Assembly: GCA_000004695.1 (NCBI GenBank)
Contig: CM000151.3
Location: forward strand, 2,944,001-3,008,000
Reading direction: 5' to 3'
Length of the DNA stretch: 64,000 bases
Source: Dictyostelium discoideum
Taxonomy: Eukaryota
Position 1 is the stretch's first letter. The number at the start of each line of letters is the position of its first letter. This document shows, piece after piece, positions 3,810 through 39,756 of this stretch. The position numbers and the translations under genes are program-made. The notes beneath the pieces were generated by a model. That model made no database searches. It was not told where the DNA came from and was given only the letters and a program-made list of their open reading frames with translations.

Positions 3810-4886
3810 TAGTTATGGTTTTTTATTTGGATTTTATCAAATCATATTTTATTTTTTTAAAAAACTGATAAAACCAAATTATTGCTATTGGTTTGCTTTT
3901 TTGTTTTCCAAAAGGAAAAAAACAAAAAAAAAAAAATTAAAAAAAAATAAAAAAAAATTAAATTATTTTAAATGTTAATTTTAAAAATTAATTTAAAAAT
4001 TAATTTTAGAAATTAATTTAAAATAAAAACAACTGATCGAAAAAAAAAAAAAAAAAAAAAAAAATAAGTTGTTGAATTAAGGAAAAAAAAAAAAACAATA
4101 ACAACAACAACAACAACAGAAATATTGATAGTTATTTTATTTTAAAATAGGTGGGTTTTATATTGCTGATAGTGTTTAAGGGTAATGATAAAAAAAAACA
4201 ATGGTTGAGGTATATAATTTTTTTAATAATTTGAAAAATATGAAAAAAAATAAATAAATAAAATAATTGAAAAAAAAATAAAATTTTAATACAAGGTTAT
4301 TATTTACTACCACACTATAAATAAATAAAAAAATTTTAAACCTTGGAGGTTGCTTATGTATTTGAATAATTTTATTATTATTATTATTATTTTTATTTTT
4401 ATTATTATTTTTTTTTTTTATTTTATTATTTTTTTTATTTTTTTTTTTTATTAATTTATTTTATTAATTTATTAATTTATTTTATTTATTACTATTTAAA
4501 AATAATAATTTTGGTATTGAATGAAGATCTCGAAAAAAAAAAAAAAAAAAAGTGTGAGATTCTAAAGTTTTTTTTTTTTTTTTTTTTTCTTTCTTTCTTT
4601 CTTTCTGAGATTACTAATTTATTCGAAAAAATATAATTATGTTCTTTAATTGCGAATAATGTGGAAATTAGATCTTTTACCAATCACTAAGATTAGTAAG
4701 ACAATGGAAAAAAAACAATAAATTTATTATTGACTTTTTATTATTATTATTTTATTATTTTTATTTATTTTTATTATTATTATAACAAATGTGTTTTTTT
4801 TTTTATAATTATTTCTTATATGAAATTATTTTGACGCAATTGTTGAAAATCAAAATTATTATTTTTAAAAGAAATTTTGTAAAATG

Positions 4887-4921
<35 letters not shown>

Positions 4922-4986
4922 ATTTATTATTATCTATTGTTATAGGGAAAGAGGATTGTAATTTTTAAAAAATTACAAAGGCTAAA

Positions 4987-5060
<74 letters not shown>

Positions 5061-5211
5061 ATTATTATAATTGTTATTGTTATATTATTTAAAACCACAC
5101 AAACACACAGCACACAAACCACACTTTTTTAATCATATAAATTTTATAATTATAATTATTTATATTAAAATGGAAAAAAAAAAAAAAAAAAAAAAAAGTG
5201 AATGGAAGAAG

Positions 5212-5242
<31 letters not shown>

Positions 5243-5518
5243 GAATAAATTTATAAAATATATGAAATATATAAAAAATAAATAAATTTTATAATTTAAT
5301 TATTTATACTCTGTAAAGGTAGTTACTATTTGAAATTTATAGCCGACTGTTTTATAATTCCTTTTCAGGTTTATTTTTTAGTATTTATAATTGTTTAAAT
5401 TTGATTTTTTATTTTTTATTTTTTATTTTTTTGGTTTTTTTTTTTTTTGGTTTTTGATTTAATTAAAAATTATTTAAAAAAGATGGTATAAATACTACTA
5501 AATAATGATAGTTAAACA

Positions 5519-5730
5519 ACACACACACACTCTCTCTCTCTCTCATTCACACTCATTCACACAAAGACACCACTGATATTATTTTTTATAAAAAAAAAAG
5601 AAAATAAAAATATGATAATTGTGATAGTGAGTTAAGATGGCGAATATAAATTAAGTGTGAGTGTGTTTGAGAGAGACAGACAGAGAGTGTGTGTGTGTAG
5701 TGTGTTTGAGAGAGAGTGTGTGTATGTGGT
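5519..5730. repeat. imperfect inverted repeat of composite (CA)n(CT)n / (AG)n(TG)n microsatellite arms (about 45-75 nt each) around an 85-nt AT-rich spacer
   Basis: The left arm is acacacacacactctctctctctctcattcacactcattcacac (5519-5565). The right arm, 5655-5730, reverse-complements to ...acacacacactctctgtctgtctctctcaaacacactcacac. Confidence 0.7.
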
Positions 5731-5947
5731 TAAATTTATATTGGTAGGAGGTGGTAAAGAAAAAATACTTTAAATTAAAATAAATATGTTTCTATAATAT
5801 ATTTTTTATTGTTATTGTTGTAGTTGTTGTTGTTAAAATTGTATTTGAAATTTTGATAGTTTAATAATAGTCATTGACTGGTTGGTTGTAAGAGTGGTTG
5901 GTTATAATAAATGGTTGGCTGTTTAGTTTGGCTGCAGCAAAACAATG

Positions 5948-6001
<54 letters not shown>

Positions 6002-6040
6002 GTAGTTGTGGTTAGAAAGAGTTGTTAAAGTGTTATAAAA

Positions 6041-6077
<37 letters not shown>

Positions 6078-6588
6078 CCATATTCACCTTTTTATTTATT
6101 ATTTTTATTTATTTTTATTTTTATTTTATTATAATGTCATGATATTTTAGTATATCCATCTACAAAACAAATATAAAAGGATTAAAAACAAAAAGAAATT
6201 GAAACAACAAATGAGATGAGAGTAAAAAAAAAAAAAACAATAAAAAACAATAAATAAATAAACAAAAAAAAAAAAAAAAATTAAAAAATTAAAAAATTAA
6301 TATTTAAACATTATAAATAAAATCCACAAAAAAAAAAAAGAATACTATTTGAAAACCATTTATTGTAGTTATAATTTATAAATTTATTCAATGGGAGTAT
6401 TATTATTAGTAATATTAATTTTTTATTGTTGTTTTTGTTTTTGGTGTTATTAAACACCATTTATTAACCACTATATAACACACTCACACTATTTATAATA
6501 TTATAAAATAATTATTCCCATTTGTAGATATGATTGTCAATTTTTTTATTTATATTTATGTGTGTAACATATCACATATATCATATAT

Positions 6589-6647
<59 letters not shown>

Positions 6648-6990
6648 AAAATAAAAAATAAAAAATAAATTTTATTGCTATTGTCTCACTACAATAAAAT
6701 AACAATAAAATTTTAACCAAATATTTTTCTTCTATGAGGAAATAAACCTCTGAATAAGTTTTTAACAATATATTCTTTTTTTCTATATCTCTTTTTATTT
6801 TTTTTATTTTTATTTTTATTTTTATTTTTATTTTTATTTTTTGTGAATTCTTAAAAATTTTACTTAAAAATCTAAATGTAAAAAAAAAAAATAATAATTA
6901 TAATAATTTGAGGGATAAATATTGTTAAGGTAAAATTTTATTAATTTTTATTATTTTATTATTTTATTATCATTTTATTATTATTATAAT

Positions 6991-7033
<43 letters not shown>

Positions 7034-7217
7034 GTATTAAGCAGATCTACATCTTGAAAATTGTATGGGTTTGTGTAATGCATTTGAAAAAATTTCCCAA
7101 AATAAAAAAAAAAAAATTGGTTTTTACAATAAAATATTTTAGTACAAATTCACATATCTAAGATTTTAAAAATTTCATCCCATATTGATATTATGGGTGT
7201 ATTAAAAAAGGATTGTT

Positions 7218-7225
7218 TCCCATAA
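7218..7225 (+). promoter_or_regulatory. DUSE-like motif TCCCATAA (Dictyostelium upstream sequence element consensus [AT]CCCA[CT]AA)
   Basis: Exact consensus match on the + strand. A hairpin (cccatat..tatggg at 7173-7195) lies just upstream and a G/T-rich patch (7281-7305) lies about 60 nt downstream. Confidence 0.3.
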
Positions 7226-7457
7226 AATTTAAAAAACAATTTTTTATTTTTTGTTTAATTTTATTTTATTTCATTTCATTTGGTTGTGGTGTTTTGTCGG
7301 GTGGTTAAAAAAATAAATAAAAAAAAAAAACAAATTTCTAAAATTTCGTTAGTTTTTACAATTTTTATTTTATTTTTTTTTTTATTTTTTTTTTTATTTT
7401 TTTTTTTATTATTATGATCAAATATCACACCTATCTAAATTAGTATAATAAGATAAT

Positions 7458-9000
7458 ATGATACGATTAGTATATAATAATTTTCGAAAACTTCCAAAAA
7501 CGCTTTTAATACCATCATTCCAAAAACAACCACATCCCATACATTTTAATTTCAACAAAAAACATTTTTTTACTACTATTAATAATAATAATACCAATGA
7601 AACAATATTAACAACTGAAAATACCCCCACCAATTTAACCCCAAATAATAATAATAAAATAATAATTAAAAATACTGAAGATGAAATTAAAGAAACAATA
7701 TTTTCTGTTCAAAGGTTTTTATTTATTTATTTATTATTTTTTTTTAGAAAATAATATTAATAATTTTCTTTTTTCTTTTTTCTTTTTATTTTTTTTTTTT
7801 TATTTTTTTTTACTTTTAATAATAAAGGGAATTAAATATTATAGAATTAAATGATTGGTATAATGTTAATATTACAAAAATATTTTCAGAGAATAAAGAA
7901 CTTAAAAATAGTGAAATTAGTAAACCAATTTTAAAATTACAACAAATATTTAGAGATAATTTTGAATATTCATTTTATGAGATGTTAAAATTTGCATACC
8001 CTAAAGAAGAATGGGATAGAGTTAAATTGGTAAAATCAATTGATAGGAATAAATATTTTTGGTTAAATCAAGATAATATTGATTCTTTTATTCAATCTTT
8101 TACAACTGATATGAAATTCGATCAAACTCATCGTAAATTTGATAGGTTTCGATATAGTGATGAAAATGAAACTGATAATGAATATCTTAAACAATGGTAT
8201 AAAGTTCAAAAAAATGATTTTATAAAATTTAAAGGTCGTCCAATAATTGCACAATTTAATGATTCAATTTATGGTTTTCTTTGTAGTTATTATCCAAATT
8301 ATAATTTTAAACCTTGGTTATTTACATCAGCTCCAAGGTATACCTTATTTATTATTAATTTATTATTAATTAATTATTTATTAATTTATTAATTATTTAT
8401 TAATTTTTTTATTATTATTTTTTATTATTTATTAGAAATTTTTGGAAACCAATTGAAAATCAAAAACAATATTTACAATGGTTAGGTAAACAAATAGGAT
8501 TCACAGAATATAACCATTGGTATGGTATTGGTAAAAATGATTTTGTTAAAAATAATGGATCATCTTTATTATTATTATATAATGGATCACCAGCAAAAGT
8601 GATTATAGAAGTTTTTAAAGATGATTATGATTGGAAAGTTTGGAAATTTAATAATTTACCAATATTAAATGATAATAAAAATAATGTTGATAATAATAAT
8701 GATAATAATAAAAATAATAAAATTGAAGAAATTAAAGATGAATTAAAAACTTTAAGAGAATTTTTTAAATTTGCAGGAGAATATTATAATATTTTAGATA
8801 TTAAAGATTGGTATAGAGTTTCAAATTCACAAATTCAATATATTGGTGGATCACAACTTGTTAAAAAACATGGTGGATTATTTAATTGTTTAGAGATTTT
8901 ATATCCAGAAGAGAAATGGGATTATCATATTTATTCACAACCTGGTAAAAAATCATCACAACGTTTATTATCAATTTATTTAAATCATTTATTTATTCAA

Positions 9001-9035
<35 letters not shown>

Positions 9036-9407
9036 TAATAATAATATTGAAATATTTGAAGATTATAGACATCCAAATTTAAAATATCAACAATTAAGTA
9101 ATCATTCATTTCATTTAGATTTTTTTATACCTCAATTATCATTAGCATTTGAATATCAAGGTAAACAACATTATATGGATGTTCCACGTTTTGGTGATTC
9201 TACAATATATCAAAATCGTGATAATGAAAAAAGATTAATTTGTAAGAATAATAATATCACAATCATTGAAATTCCATTTTGGTGGGATAATCAAATTGAA
9301 TCTTTAATTGGTACAATTATCACTGAATTACCAAATTTAAAAGATCAATTATTAATAAATTATAAAAATTATTTATTAAATTATAAAAAAAATAATAATC
9401 AAATTAT

Positions 9408-9438
<31 letters not shown>

Positions 9439-9693
9439 CAAATTATTAATAATAAAAATGATAATAATAATAATAATAATAATAATGGTGATAATGGTGA
9501 TAATGGTGATAATAATAAAAATAAAAATAATAATAATAATAATAATTTAAAAAATATTAATGATAATAATAATAATAATGATAATAATAATAAAAATGGT
9601 AATAATAATCAAATTGATTTTGACACTTTTTTACCAATATCAAAAACACCACAAAAGGTTAGTAATCGTAAAAGACTTTTCAATAAAGAATGA
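7458..9693 (+). CDS. hypothetical protein of about 674 aa, with an N-terminal mitochondrial-presequence-like segment and a C-terminal DUF559/Vsr-like (PD-(D/E)xK-type) nuclease-like region; join(7458..7714,7828..8337,8436..9693)
   Basis: Three frame-compatible pieces. Exon 1 opens MIRLVYNNFRKLPKTLLIPSFQK (basic, no acidic residues). The exon 2/3 junction AG|GTATAC ... TTATTAG|A keeps frame (split codon aga). The C-terminus reads HLDFFIPQLSLAFEYQGKQHY...RDNEKRLICKNNNITIIEIPFWWD, which resembles DUF559-type endonuclease-like domains. The intron-1 donor GTTTTT is non-consensus, so exon 1 is uncertain; an alternative start is ATG 7982. Confidence 0.5.
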
Positions 9694-9807
9694 TTTTTGA
9701 ATAAATCTAAAATTTAATCTTAAACAAAAGAAAAAAAAGTGGTTGGAAAATTTTTTTTAATTTATTTATTTGTTTAAAGAATAAAACAAATATATTATTT
9801 TTATTTC

Positions 9808-9838
<31 letters not shown>

Positions 9839-10095
9839 TTAAAATAATCTTTTAACTATAGTACTCAAATAAATAAAAAAATAAATAAAAAGTCATAAAA
9901 GAATAAAATTAAGGTTTGGAGAAAAAAAAAAAAAAAAAAAAAAATTTATTTATTTTTTTATTTATTTATTTTACAACCAATTATAACCACCATTAGATTT
10001 AAAAATTTTTTAATAAAAATTATAATATTTATTAACTTTTTGATTTATTTGAAATCAATGATTATTAATATAAATATAGCACCATTAACCACTTA

Positions 10096-10103
10096 TCCCA
10101 CAA
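10096..10103 (+). promoter_or_regulatory. DUSE-like motif TCCCACAA followed about 45-80 nt downstream by a short hairpin and a T18 tract (a possible Pol III-type small RNA unit)
   Basis: Exact match to [AT]CCCA[CT]AA. Downstream there is a tctatcAATTGCgataga hairpin (10146-10163) and then T-run 10183-10200. Confidence 0.3.
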
Positions 10104-10865
10104 TAAAATAAAATATAAAAACTAAACCATGTAATCTTTATTTCCATCTCTATCAATTGCGATAGATAAATCTGATTGAGTTTTTTTTTTTTTTTTTTTT
10201 TGTTTTTTTTTTCCTTTTTTCATTTTCTTTTTTTTATTAAAAAGGTGAAGACGGTAATACCAATAAAAGCAATTGTAAGTTTTTTGTAAATAAGATAAAT
10301 TATATATAATTAACAATTATTTAATATTTTTTTAAAGATACAAAATGGTGCATGTATTACCATTTTTATTTAATTTATTTTATTTTTTTTTTATTTTATT
10401 TTATTTTTTATGAACCTAGTGCGTGTGTGTATGTGTGTGGTTATTAATTTGATATAACCCACCCAGAATATCTAAATAAGCCAGTTGTTTTACCTTTTCT
10501 TTTTTTAATTTCCTTTTTATTTTTTTTAAATTTTTCATTTTTCATTTTCGAAATGACTTTCCCACATTATCTTATTTTTTTTTCCATTATTTTTTTTATT
10601 TGCAAATAAAATTTTTTTTTTTTTTTTTTTTTTTTTAATTTTTTTTATTTTTTTTTTATTTTTTTGGTATTTTTTTTTTTGTATAAAATTCACCTCTTTC
10701 ATATTCTCTCCTCTGCAATATAAATTTTTTGTTTAACAAATTTTTTTTTTTTTTAATGTTTTTTTAAATATTAATTATAATTTTAATTTAAAATAGAAAA
10801 TAAAAAATTAAAAAAAAAAAAAAAAAAAAAAAACGCACATTTTACTTTTGCACAAATTAAAAAGG

Positions 10866-10903
<38 letters not shown>

Positions 10904-11220
10904 GAAATCAATTAAACAATACATTTCGCAATATTTATTATAATTGTAATATTACATTAACAAAAGATAAAGTAGAGGGAAATAAAGGATATAAATAGAA
11001 AAAGAAGGAGAAGAAGTGGTGCGTAGTTAAATTATTATTATAATTTTATATTATAATAAAAAGATAATTTATTTATTGGTCATAATAATTTTACTTTTAA
11101 TATAATAACTTTTATAATTAAAAAAAAAAAAAAAAAAAAAAAAACAAAAACAAAAAAGTATATATTAAATAAATTTAAAAAAACACGCGTGTATATCCCC
11201 ATATATATATACGAAAAGAA

Positions 11221-15208
<3,988 letters not shown>

Positions 15209-36578: not shown

Positions 36579-37451
36579 CTATTCGTCTTCTTCTATTGTA
36601 GGTTCTTCCCCACCATCATCTTCAGCTACTTCATCATCTTGATTTTCTCCACCATCCTCTTCATTTTCATCATCATCACCAGCAGATTGGTTTGTCCACC
36701 AAGAAACCATACCTAAACCTGCTTCTCTCATTGACACTTTTAAGATCAAAGGAGATTTAACTTGTTTCAAAAGATTTTCATTTTCAATTTGTTTTTCTTT
36801 ATATTCTCTCAATGAATAAGAATCCATTGCTTCTGTATTTACATTTTTTGGTGATGGTGCTGGTTGTGATATCTCTGGATTAAATTCAACTTGATCAATT
36901 TTAAATCTAACCCTACCACCATCTTCAAAAAACAATTGATTTTCATTCCATTCCCAATACCATAATCCTTCTTCTTGATTACTAAAATAAATTTGAATTA
37001 AAATTAAAATTTTATTATTATTAATTATTTATTATTTATTTAATTAATTATTTAACTATTATTTATTAATTATTAATTATTAATTTTATATTTACTAATT
37101 TGATGGATTTGGTAATTCGATTGGATTTAAATAAATTTCATGAAAGAAACCAAGAGAAATTTGAATTGATTGTCTTGAAGACTTTTTTATAACACCTTCC
37201 AAAACTTCACCTTTGAAAGGTTTAAATACAACCATTCTAAAACGAACCATAAGGTGAGCACCTCCGTCACCTGAATGAACATATGAATCACCTGTTCCTA
37301 ATATATCATATAATGCTACAAATAAACCTGCATTTAATACAACTTTACTTGTATACTTCTTTTCAATTTCATCTTCAATTGTTTGTACTTCATTATTGAA
37401 TTGACTTGGTGCTATTCTAACTTTATCTTCAATCGTTATTAAATGAAACAT
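36579..37451 (-). CDS. DNA-directed RNA polymerase III subunit Rpc25/RPC8 (POLR3H, Rpb7-like), about 252 aa with an acidic C-terminal tail; complement(join(36579..36981,37096..37451))
   Basis: The N-terminus MFHLITIEDKVRIAPSQF...VVLNAGLFVALYDIL...GDGGAHLMVRFRMVVFKPFKGEVLEGVI...ISLGFFHEIYL is collinear with POLR3H/Rpb7-fold subunits, and the GLGMVSWWTNQS motif near the C-terminus is conserved. The intron (GTAAAT..TTTTAG) is phase-2 consistent (split codon tat). Confidence 0.85.
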
Positions 37452-38288
37452 TATATTGTTTCATGTATAATAAATATAGATTGAAACGAAAAAAAAAAAA
37501 AATAAAAAGAAATTGAAAAACATTTTGAAAAAAAAAATTTTCTTTTTTTTTTTTTTTTTTTTCTTTTTTTTTTTTTTTTTCTCTATTCTCAAAAATAACA
37601 ATTATTTTTATATTTTTTTTTTTTTTTTTACATTTTTTTTCATCCAATCAGAATAAAATAAAATAAAACAAAATAAAATAAAATAAAATAAAATAAAATA
37701 AAATAAAATAAAATAAAATAAAATATAAAAAAATAATTTTTTTTTTTTTTTTTACTCCATTCAAAAAAAAGGCAAAGTTATACTTAAATAAAAAAAAAAA
37801 AATAAATACACTTATCAGAGTTATTAATCCAATTGCCCGAGAATCAAAGGATTTTATTCTTTTTTATAAGATAAATCTTTTCATTCTCGGGCATTGTTGA
37901 TAGGTAGATGCTATATTAAACAGCTTTCACTAAATATTTTTTAATATTAAAAAAAAAAATAAAACAACTTTTATACATGACACAGAAATAAACATTGAAA
38001 TTTTTTAATTTTCGTTCAAGATAAATTTTAAAAATACATTTTATTCTAATAATAATTTTTACTAATATTAATTTATATTATAGGTTGATTGCCATGAAAC
38101 AAAATTAAAAAATCAAAGTTTAGTGAACTATATTTGGCTGAAAGGGGTGTCTCTGGCTGTGTCGGCTCCCGAACAAAACAAAAAAAAAAACAAAACAAAA
38201 CAAAATAAAATAAAACAAAATAAAACAAAATAAAACAAAATAAAATTTATTAAATAAACTAAAAAAAAAAATTAAACAAATAAACAAA

Positions 38289-38322
<34 letters not shown>

Positions 38323-38371
38323 AAATAAATAAATAATCGAATAATTTTATAAAGTTAATTTTTAATACTTT

Positions 38372-38819
38372 TTATTGTTTTGAAATTTCAGATTCATTAT
38401 CTTTTTGTTTATTAAATTCATCTGATTTTTTTGTATTTCTTCTTTTAATTAAAAGTACAGTGACTATAATTATAAATACAATCACTGAAAATCCAATAAT
38501 TGATATTAAGATTGGTATTAAAATATTCTTTTTCTTTACTTGATTTGGTTCAATTGGTGAGCCACCTCTTGCGATAAAACTTTGAGCATATTTTTCATTA
38601 TGATGTAATGGAATTTTAAAGTTTGTATACTTTTCATATGATAATGTATCAATATTATAAACGATTAAAACATTTGATTTATCTGAATAAAATAAACAAA
38701 ATAATTATTTTTCTATTTTAATAAAATTTATTGGTTATAAAATTTTTTATCATACAAAGCATGAGTGAATAGTATTTTATACACAATTTATTATTCCAAT
38801 AAATTAAGGTTGAAACCAT
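38372..38819 (-). CDS. small single-pass membrane protein of about 124 aa, two exons, not present in the ORF track; complement(join(38372..38682,38756..38819))
   Basis: Exon 1 is ATG..MVSTLIYWNNKLCIKYYSLML, then a GTATGA donor. The 73-nt intron ends TTTTATTCAG. Exon 2 is a 103-codon open frame with a TM segment ILIPILISIIGFSVIVFIIIVTVLLI and a basic tail KRRNTKKSDEFNKQKDNESEISKQ*. Codon composition (GC-containing codons) is unlike the flanking AT-only spacer. Confidence 0.45.
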
Positions 38820-38880
38820 TTTTTTTTTTTTTTTTTTTTTATTCACACTTTTTTTTTTTTTTTTTCTTTTTAAAAAATAA

Positions 38881-39756
38881 TTATATTTTATAATTATTTA
38901 ATTTTTTATGATTAAATACAGGTATGTTTTCTCTACAAGTTGAAATGTAATCGAGATCTATATCAACAAAAGCGATATCATTTAGGTTATCAGGTAAATC
39001 ATGTAAGACCTTACCCCAAGGATCAATGATCATTGAATGGCCATAGGAAGATCTTTTAGAATGATGATCACCAGTTTGAGCAGCAGCGATGACATAAGTT
39101 TGATTTTCAATTGCTCTTGCTTGAAGTAATGGTTTCCAATGTGCTTCACCAGTACTCTTCATAAATGCACTTGGTACCAATAGAATTTGAGCATCCATTC
39201 TTCTTAGACTTAGATAAAGTTCTGGAAAACGTAAATCATAACAAATTGATAAACCAAGTTTACCAACTGGTGAATCACAAACCACTAAATCATTACCACC
39301 TTTAACAACTTTACTTTCATTCATTTTAACACCCTTTGATGGAATATCGACATCAAATAAATGCATCTTTCTATACTCGCAAACTATTACACCATTTGAA
39401 TCAATGATTAAATGAGTATTGTAGATCATATCATTTGGATCATCCAATATCTTTTCATGAAATCCACCTAATGATAACCAAATATTATTTTGCTTTGCTA
39501 AATCTTTATATCTTTCAATGATTCCTCCTTTTTGATCTAAATACTCTGCATTATCTCTTGATTCAAATTGATGAATTCCACCACTTATAAATGCAAAACA
39601 TTCTGGTAAACAAAATAAATTCACTTTATTTTCAACAGCTTTCTCTATCATTTCTTTACATTTTCTAAAATTATCCTCTTTATTATTGGTACTTGTAATT
39701 TGACCTAATCCAATCCTTTTTAATTTATTCATTAATATTTTTGAATTTCTAATCAT
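38881..39756 (-). CDS. nit1: nitrilase-family protein Nit1-like (carbon-nitrogen hydrolase), 291 aa, single exon
   Basis: The CN-hydrolase catalytic triad contexts are present: LPECF (Glu), RKMHLFD (Lys) and LSICYDLRFPE (Cys). It is collinear with Nit1/Nit2 family proteins and is ATG to TAA with no intron. Confidence 0.85.
   Translation of the reverse strand: MIRNSKILMNKLKRIGLGQITSTNNKEDNFRKCKEMIEKAVENKVNLFCLPECFAFISGGIHQFESRDNAEYLDQKGGIIERYKDLAKQNNIWLSLGGFHEKILDDPNDMIYNTHLIIDSNGVIVCEYRKMHLFDVDIPSKGVKMNESKVVKGGNDLVVCDSPVGKLGLSICYDLRFPELYLSLRRMDAQILLVPSAFMKSTGEAHWKPLLQARAIENQTYVIAAAQTGDHHSKRSSYGHSMIIDPWGKVLHDLPDNLNDIAFVDIDLDYISTCRENIPVFNHKKLNNYKI

Follow-up and report, generated by a model that had tools for sequence, protein, structure and literature searches.

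Does the interval between nit1 and rpc25 in Dictyostelium discoideum AX4 hold a small gene of its own, or what is left of a larger one? The question is raised by a two-exon model on the minus strand directly downstream of nit1, in a 64,000-nucleotide stretch of contig CM000151.3 (positions 2,944,001 to 3,008,000; hereafter the window, whose coordinates are used unless another locus is named). The model was first proposed here in a sequence-only reading of the window, as an unlisted gene for a small single-pass membrane protein. That reading placed the start codon at 38819, a GTATGA donor, a 73-nt intron with a TTTTATTCAG acceptor and a second exon of 103 codons, and every one of these coordinates is right. 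Exon 2 indeed has no in-frame ATG of its own on the minus strand, and the spliced product of 124 amino acids (aa) has the transmembrane (TM) helix claimed for it, with a 19-residue Kyte–Doolittle maximum of 3.13, followed by a basic tail with 8 Lys/Arg in 24 residues. The juxtamembrane motif ARGGSPIEPNQVKKKN is also encoded within exon 2, and the 124-aa sequence includes YYSLMLYK, SNVLIVYNIDTLSYEK and YAQSFIAR. Exon 1 (MVSTLIYWNNKLCIKYYSLML) reaches only 0.37 on the same hydropathy scale and lacks signal-peptide character.

The description of the gene as unlisted applies to the prokaryote-style open reading frame (ORF) track only. Compared with a large protein collection, exon 2 leads to the identical 124-aa spliced model, with 100% identity and coverage, in GenBank and UniProt as DDB_G0273521 / DDB_G0273427 (Q557J4, XP_644609.1), an annotated hypothetical protein of D. 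discoideum AX4. That there are two identifiers is consistent with the known chromosome-2 duplication in AX4. No annotated orthologue of a size similar to the 124-aa model was found. As a gene prediction nothing is therefore added here, as the model has long been present in the AX4 annotation; what can be added is that the annotated model covers just part of an ancestral gene that was larger. We consider its origin as a relic close to certain, and the locus itself is probably a non-functional 3' fragment of a larger type I membrane-protein gene, onto which a gene model has been patched.

This conclusion starts from the homologues of exon 2. In a phmmer search that was exhaustive over 1.8 billion representatives, exon 2 gave nine matches, six of which are real relatives (E = 1.5e-39 to 3e-14). 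The six comprise proteins of 318–415 aa and short fragment-like models, and all of them are aligned by their C-terminal ends only; for the C-termini of the 366- to 415-aa proteins, E ranges from 1.5e-39 to 5e-19. Taken over the family, the match of exon 2 is to the last 103 to 118 residues of proteins that are 366 to 445 residues long. Judged from sequence, the coding origin of exon 2 is beyond doubt because of this homology to longer proteins (E = 1.5e-39).

The profile search raised the family to 13 proteins, and the phmmer and profile searches together give 13–15 relatives, all from the D. discoideum complex or D. dimigraforme. Its full-length members (366–445 aa) share one layout, with a signal peptide, a CQYEKQGYTLPPTTIYY module, an ectodomain of about 300 residues bearing N-x-S/T sequons, often a poly-Asn/Asp linker, and a C-terminal module that consists of ARGGSPIEP, the TM helix and KRRN...KDNESEIS. 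The C-terminal module is the best-conserved part of the family, and the invariant and near-invariant alignment columns fall within it. Members include KAN0044948.1 (P0003, 366 aa), P0017 (410 aa), P0014 (428 aa) and P0016 (406 aa), as well as a 445-aa gene at 6513–7939 of locus L004 and a 444-aa gene at 9750–11165 of locus L001 (both loci are described below). Against five family members, Pfam returned sub-threshold matches only (such as EphA2_TM, TMEM154 and Orf78), driven by the TM helix, and the family profile had no match among PDB sequences. An AlphaFold2 model of P0003, built on an 11-sequence family alignment, has a mean predicted local distance difference test score (pLDDT) of 51 and a predicted template modeling score of 0.39. 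It shows beta strands through the stretch retained in AX4, at that same low confidence, and the family ectodomain may thus be beta-rich.

Set against this layout, the AX4 locus is a C-terminal remainder. It carries the C-terminal module (F-x-A-x-G-x-P-I-E-P, K-K-x-N, the TM helix PI..SIIGFS, and K/R-R-x-N ... KDNESE), its 103 C-terminal residues are 73–92% identical to those of the family, and it occupies the same nit1–rpc25 interval, whereas the signal peptide, the CQYEKQGYTLPPTTIYY module, the ~300-aa ectodomain, the poly-Asn linker and the native intron are missing. When all members were compared with the 64-kb window by tblastn, the C-terminal part alone matched, at 38728/38701–38375, and the N-terminal three quarters of the family had no match anywhere in the window. 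Neither the signal peptide nor the (C/R)-(Q/E)-Y-x-K-(Q/K)-G-(Y/L)-T-x-P-P-x-T-I-Y module was found in this search, and of the full ectodomain (SITFDDCSKDYFN(I/V)T ... YSIYKYDL ...) only the last ~50 residues are kept. The intron of the native two-exon structure, which follows ...ANNET and runs from GTAAAT to TTTTAG over 81–89 nt, has no counterpart, its site being deleted in AX4. A 154-aa "D. cf. discoideum" model in the 90% cluster that includes the AX4 protein does not start at a splice acceptor; its frame runs upstream through ...SYFILYSDKSNV....

To place the fragment in its genomic setting, related loci reached through P0002, P0004, P0018 and P0017 were compared with the window by blastn with a bit-score filter, as an unfiltered run was swamped by low-complexity A+T matches. 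Close relatives have one to three family copies after nit1, at least one of them intact, and the interval reaches rpc25 in two loci. Locus L004, from an isolate labelled D. discoideum, reads abpE, nit1, an intact 445-aa gene (intron GTAAAT...TTTTAG), a 382-aa gene, rpc25 and TFIIE-alpha. Locus L001 (D. cf. discoideum), where only the nit1 side of the interval is seen, has abpE, nit1 and three tandem family copies, one intact (444 aa) and two with stops or frameshifts. In D. dimigraforme (L005), where the block is inverted, rpc25 and nit1 flank an intact 410-aa two-exon member. Of the neighbors, the L004 gene at 11170–12035 carries SHS2_Rpb7-N and RNA_pol_Rbc25, and the syntenic nit1 homologues carry Pfam CN_hydrolase. 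nit1 is 98.4–98.5% identical between AX4 and L001 or L004 (98.5% for the L004 coding sequence, with 0.061 synonymous substitutions per synonymous site, dS; dS is ~0.06 for both loci), and its dS to D. dimigraforme is 0.67.

The window is collinear with the L004 flanks on both sides of the fragment, over 43436–38686 and over 37736–30000, the latter corresponding to L004 10896–18566. Between these two blocks only 38729–38369 finds a match, namely the 3' ends of both L004 family genes at 92.3% each. Exon 2 corresponds to residues 343–445 of the intact 445-aa gene at 88% identity (the alignment takes in residues 337–445), and window 38691–38252 aligns with L001 8235–8687 at 88.3%. The long gene in the nit1–rpc25 interval is ancestral, because the outgroup D. 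dimigraforme has an intact long member in the same interval; AX4 accordingly keeps no more than the last 103 codons, the last 23%. The opposite polarity, with the short AX4 form as the ancestral one, was rejected, as the outgroup holds the long form there. The sequence-only reading had proposed to look for exon 2 in other dictyostelids by tblastn and for synteny next to nit1, and exon 2 is indeed kept next to nit1, but this conservation belongs to the parent gene and not to the 124-aa model.

The compared loci also show other features, and we describe these here as separate observations. In L001, the two disrupted copies (7258–8554 and ~12780–14004) have in-frame TGA codons or frameshifts and are annotated in pieces, P0020 (172 aa) and P0002 (154 aa) for one and P0019 (259 aa) for the other (copies A and C); they are either decaying or assembly errors. 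A long inverted repeat (GGCTCTTTCTTTCTGACTTCGACGTCGG ... CCGAAGTCGAAGTCAGAGAGAAAGAGCC) was seen by eye at L001 8880–9030 between copies A and B, and it may belong to a mobile element involved in rearrangements. In L004, the model of the second copy (P0018, 382 aa) starts at an internal ATG at 8929–9020, in another frame than the expected signal-peptide exon (MKFIIFF...CQYEKQGYT), and this copy may have an exon 1 frameshift or be mis-modelled. In L005, nit1 and the family gene form a block at 4583–13533 that is inverted relative to rpc25 and TFIIE-alpha when compared with AX4 and L004, and the family gene and nit1 are separated by an extra 154-aa model that runs on the opposite strand. The P0003 locus of D. 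dimigraforme (L003) has neither nit1 (CN_hydrolase) nor rpc25 in its gene table.

A further locus joins the two genes at another site. In L002 (D. cf. discoideum, GCA_054859235.1; 7817–9229), a 5'-truncated nit1 with a premature TAA, homologous from window position 39618 onwards, lies at a non-syntenic site beside UQ_con and SGTA genes. About 25 nt past it, a longer family relic starts at ...IYKYDLSNQ..., and the whole is annotated as a 362-aa nit1::relic fusion, P0004. Here a second and independent truncation, with a different breakpoint, is joined to nit1 sequence. P0004 is one of several patched models that annotators have placed on family fragments (P0002, P0004, P0007, P0008, P0019 and P0020).

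Among annotated AX4 proteins no intact family member was found, only fragments. A second short AX4 model, DDB_G0293710 (Q54BK6, P0008, 116 aa), belongs to a distant branch of the family. Like DDB_G0273521, it keeps the C-terminal module; its alignment with the 415-aa P0006 falls into two parts between which the middle of P0006 is not represented, and it is therefore probably another gene remnant. It differs from DDB_G0273521 in lying on another contig, in belonging to a subfamily that is 45–55% identical, and in having an internal rather than a 5' deletion. In supplementary file 5 of PMC6198379, DDB_G0293710 stands at a very low 0–2.5 reads per kilobase per million mapped reads and is marked "not in dictyBase".

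We next turn to where the first part of the 124-aa model comes from. The AX4 sequence from 38900 to ~38698 is homologous to the spacer that follows nit1 in L001 and L004, where the genuine exon 1 of the family gene does not begin until 550–600 bp further downstream. The annotated intron is homologous to L001 6855–6910 and L004 6025–6081, that is, to spacer upstream of complete family genes, and the collinear blastn block ends at window 38686, equal to L001 6910 and L004 6081. Family-gene homology begins at ...TTATTCAGATAAATC..., and the acceptor CAG is part of the codons TCA-GAT (Ser-Asp) of ...ILYSDKS..., inside the ancestral exon. A T-rich microhomology (TTTATT / TTATTTTATT) is common to both sides at 38697–38686, so the exact breakpoint is ambiguous within these positions.

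Exon 1 does not behave as coding sequence in the relatives. Its homologue reads ATG GTT TTC AAC CTT AAT TTA TTG GAA AAA TAT AAT TGT GTA TAA in L001 and ATG GTT TTC AAC ATG TTT AAT TTA TTG GAA TAA in L004, with 1-nt and 3-nt indels and a stop after 14 and 10 codons, respectively, and no counterpart follows nit1 in D. dimigraforme. Because of these indels and early stops in L001 and L004, we read exon 1 as non-coding; it is nit1 3' flank, and so is the intron, which also takes in the deletion junction. This flank contains AATAAA at 38843, at 38792 within exon 1 and at 38732 within the intron, and the region 38843–38732 is therefore likely the nit1 polyadenylation zone.

The gene signals do not exceed what chance would provide. 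The stop-free run at the locus is 110 codons long, which for this interval is unusual without being extreme, and a run of that length was reached in 25 of 2000 dinucleotide shuffles of the nit1–rpc25 interval, in which long runs arise because of homopolymer tracts. Among shuffled upstream regions, 12% offered a path from an ATG through a donor and an acceptor into the ORF when the splice sites were defined strictly (GTAWG..YAG), 52% did so with GTA..AG and 81% with GT..AG, and real spacer segments gave similar fractions. The start and splice signals are thus within chance expectation. In the retained frame, 61 of the 918 possible substitutions create a stop, and if the AX4 lineage has accumulated ~0.03 neutral changes per site, half of the nit1 dS, the probability of finding no stop is ~0.54 (0.49 at 0.035 changes per site, and 0.36–0.82 over the divergences tried). 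As this probability is close to one half, the open frame needs no selective explanation.

These comparisons reveal the following history. The ancestral gene had two exons and encoded ~370–445 aa; the nit1–rpc25 interval held a single copy of it or a tandem array, and its product consisted of a cleavable signal peptide, CQYEKQGYTLPPTTIYY, the ectodomain, the poly-Asn/Asp linker, ARGGSPIEP, the TM helix and the KRRN...KDNESEIS tail. A deletion in the AX4 lineage, using the short T-rich microhomology, then brought the 3' flank of nit1 up against the codons of ...ILY|SDKS. Measured in L004 coordinates it spans ~1.5 to 3.9 kb, depending on the copy of origin; overall, AX4 lacks ~3.9 kb of the L004 interval. 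With this deletion the gene lost its promoter, the exon for the signal peptide, its own intron and ~77% of its coding sequence, so that ~103 codons and the 3' flank are left. The ATG, the 21-codon exon and the 73-nt intron would be fortuitous signals in the nit1 flank, taken up by a gene finder that patched the model because the ORF has no ATG of its own. If translated, the product would lack a signal peptide and carry the last ectodomain strands, the membrane anchor and the tail.

The fragment resembles a truncated pseudogene in being part of a longer parent, bounded by a rearrangement junction and deprived of the parent promoter and start. Truncated (unprocessed) pseudogene fragments in tandem arrays are likewise homologous to part of a parent and bounded by microhomology deletion junctions, and copy number and intactness of the array vary between close strains: AX4 has a single relic, whereas L004 has two copies and L001 has three, two of which are disrupted. 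Unlike the usual pseudogene fragment, the part retained in AX4 has no disabling mutation and is provided with a plausible but unconserved start and intron. As there are no lesions, we infer its pseudogene status from the missing parts.

Several observations weigh against a non-functional fragment. The retained 103 codons have no stop or frameshift. The intron has GT-AG ends and is canonical in size and A+T content, and the ATG lies in the A-rich context typical of the species. An identical 124-aa model, KAM9952303.1, is present in a second D. discoideum assembly, though it may simply have been transferred from AX4. The retained part is the best-conserved module of the family, and the fragment could for this reason keep some activity. 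Pairwise ratios of non-synonymous to synonymous change (dN/dS) against five related copies are 0.30–0.50, from 4–6 synonymous and 5–9 non-synonymous differences. Finally, the lack of expression at the 124-aa locus is something we infer.

The likeliest alternative is that the locus is a functional two-exon gene for a 124-aa single-pass protein with its N-terminus outside and its basic tail in the cytosol, which gained its start and intron from the nit1 flank and whose conserved TM and tail module might let it serve as an adaptor or decoy. To the points just listed it can add that the annotated splice model is the best of four possible GT..AG models. We nevertheless regard it as unlikely. Exon 1 is not conserved, with indels and stops in two relatives as close as dS ~0.06, the signals are within chance expectation and there is no signal peptide. 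The promoter would be confined to the 61 A-rich bases (6.6% G+C) between the nit1 stop and the ATG, or lie inside nit1, and polyadenylation signals fall within exon 1 and the intron. The dN/dS comparison has no power: the differences are mostly shared among the copies and therefore predate the truncation or are independent of it, and pairs of disrupted copies give similar values. AX4 has a single private substitution, an I to V change in the helix, and from one such change selection is not demonstrable. Neither DDB_G0273521 nor DDB_G0273427 was found in literature full text, with transcriptome and proteome supplements covered in part, and we count this as weak evidence. The sequence-only reading had named a lack of coding conservation, with no Ka/Ks below 1, as what would speak against the gene; the ratio is below 1, but the signal is that of the parent gene. 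Its view of the locus holds insofar as exon 2 is derived from coding sequence and conserved near nit1, and fails insofar as this was not a self-contained small gene in origin.

A related possibility, which we consider improbable, is that the fragment was exapted after the truncation. The nit1 flank would have provided a promoter-proximal ATG, the 21-codon exon and the intron, and AX4 would make a 124-aa membrane-anchored mini-protein that bears the best-conserved module of the family, with juxtamembrane motif, TM helix and tail. If true, a truncated gene and non-coding DNA would here have given rise to a gene anew, and very recently.

We consider it likewise improbable that the relic is transcribed only passively, whether through nit1 read-through, an extended nit1 3' untranslated region or a rare nit1::relic fusion isoform, in which case it would have no independent gene identity. 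The model does start 61–62 nt past the nit1 stop on the same strand, several AATAAA are spread over 38843–38732, and 25 phase-1 GT sites in nit1 could be joined in frame to the acceptor at 38682. A nit1::relic fusion has also been modelled in another strain (P0004), but the nit1 copy there lies elsewhere in the genome, lacks its 5' part and has a premature stop, and P0004 is probably a pseudogene model itself. Across the four loci compared, nit1 moreover keeps its length of 291 aa and its C-terminal residues. That the frame is open by chance, in A+T-rich spacer that was never coding, can be discarded: long stop-free runs do occur in shuffled spacer (mean 65, maximum 133 codons), but the homology is decisive, as full-length proteins of four other genomes match with their C-termini at E of 1e-39 to 1e-19 and the position next to nit1 is conserved.

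A non-functional remnant of a larger gene remains the most probable reading of the locus, the layout of which is given in Table 1.

Table 1. Features of the nit1–rpc25 interval and of the annotated two-exon model in window coordinates
Feature	Position	Strand	Description
nit1 (CN_hydrolase, 291 aa)	39756–38881	minus	ORF; upstream neighbor; stop TAA 38883–38881
Annotated exon 1 (MVSTLIYWNNKLCIKYYSLML + 1 nt)	38819–38756	minus	64 nt, 21 codons + 1 nt
Annotated intron	38755–38683	minus	73 nt, 89% A+T, GTATGA ... TTTTATTCAG
Deletion junction	38686..38697	minus	nit1-flank homology stops, family-gene homology starts
Annotated exon 2 / relic coding segment	38682–38372	minus	311 nt, 103 codons + TAA (38374–38372)
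TM helix	38524–38447	minus	residues 75–100 of the 124-aa product
Cytoplasmic tail (predicted)	38446–38375	minus	KRRNTKKSDEFNKQKDNESEISKQ; 8 K/R in 24 residues
3' flank of relic	38252..38371	minus	alignable with the 3' flank of L001 family copy A and with the L002 copy
rpc25 (two exons)	36579–37451	minus	ORFs; downstream neighbor; bounds the interval holding family genes in relatives

Beyond the relic and its 3' flank, the spacer towards rpc25 shows some further features. About 515 bp of it (38252–37737) are specific to AX4, with nothing equivalent in the related loci. At 37835–37892, upstream of rpc25, either strand can form a near-perfect hairpin of 58 nt (GCCCGAGAAT ... ATTCTCGGGC), with folding energies of -24.7 and -28.1 kcal/mol (z -7.0 and -6.0 against shuffles). 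It is absent from L001, L002, L004 and L005, and its Rfam matches to microRNA precursors are sub-threshold only (E = 0.008 and 0.07); the whole window had no Rfam match at gathering thresholds. The hairpin could be a microRNA-like precursor, a terminator-like element or a small palindromic insertion. At 38130–38175 on the minus strand, a G+C-rich island (GTTCGGGAGCCGACACAGCCAGAGACACCCCTTTCAGCC), unique in the window, stands in spacer of otherwise ~15% G+C. Considered as a small structured RNA, it gave no structure signal (z +0.4 to +0.55) and no Rfam match, and its first bases alone resemble L001 ~8687–8720, downstream of family copy A. An (ATTTT)n microsatellite lies upstream of rpc25 both in the window (37650–37740) and in L004 (10880–10990), at the start of the right-hand synteny block.

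These results call for a correction in the annotation: DDB_G0273521 / DDB_G0273427 should be entered as a gene fragment instead of an orphan small membrane protein, and the same probably applies to DDB_G0293710, which matters for orphan-gene counts, small-protein catalogues and knockout screens. They also bring out a previously unnamed, lineage-restricted family of surface proteins. The parent family might conceivably underlie strain-specific cell-surface traits, because its copy number varies, copies decay in close relatives and the members found among annotated AX4 proteins are fragments only. That the family differs in copy number and intactness between strains as close as a nit1 dS of ~0.06 makes it a modest lead on what distinguishes Dictyostelium strains.

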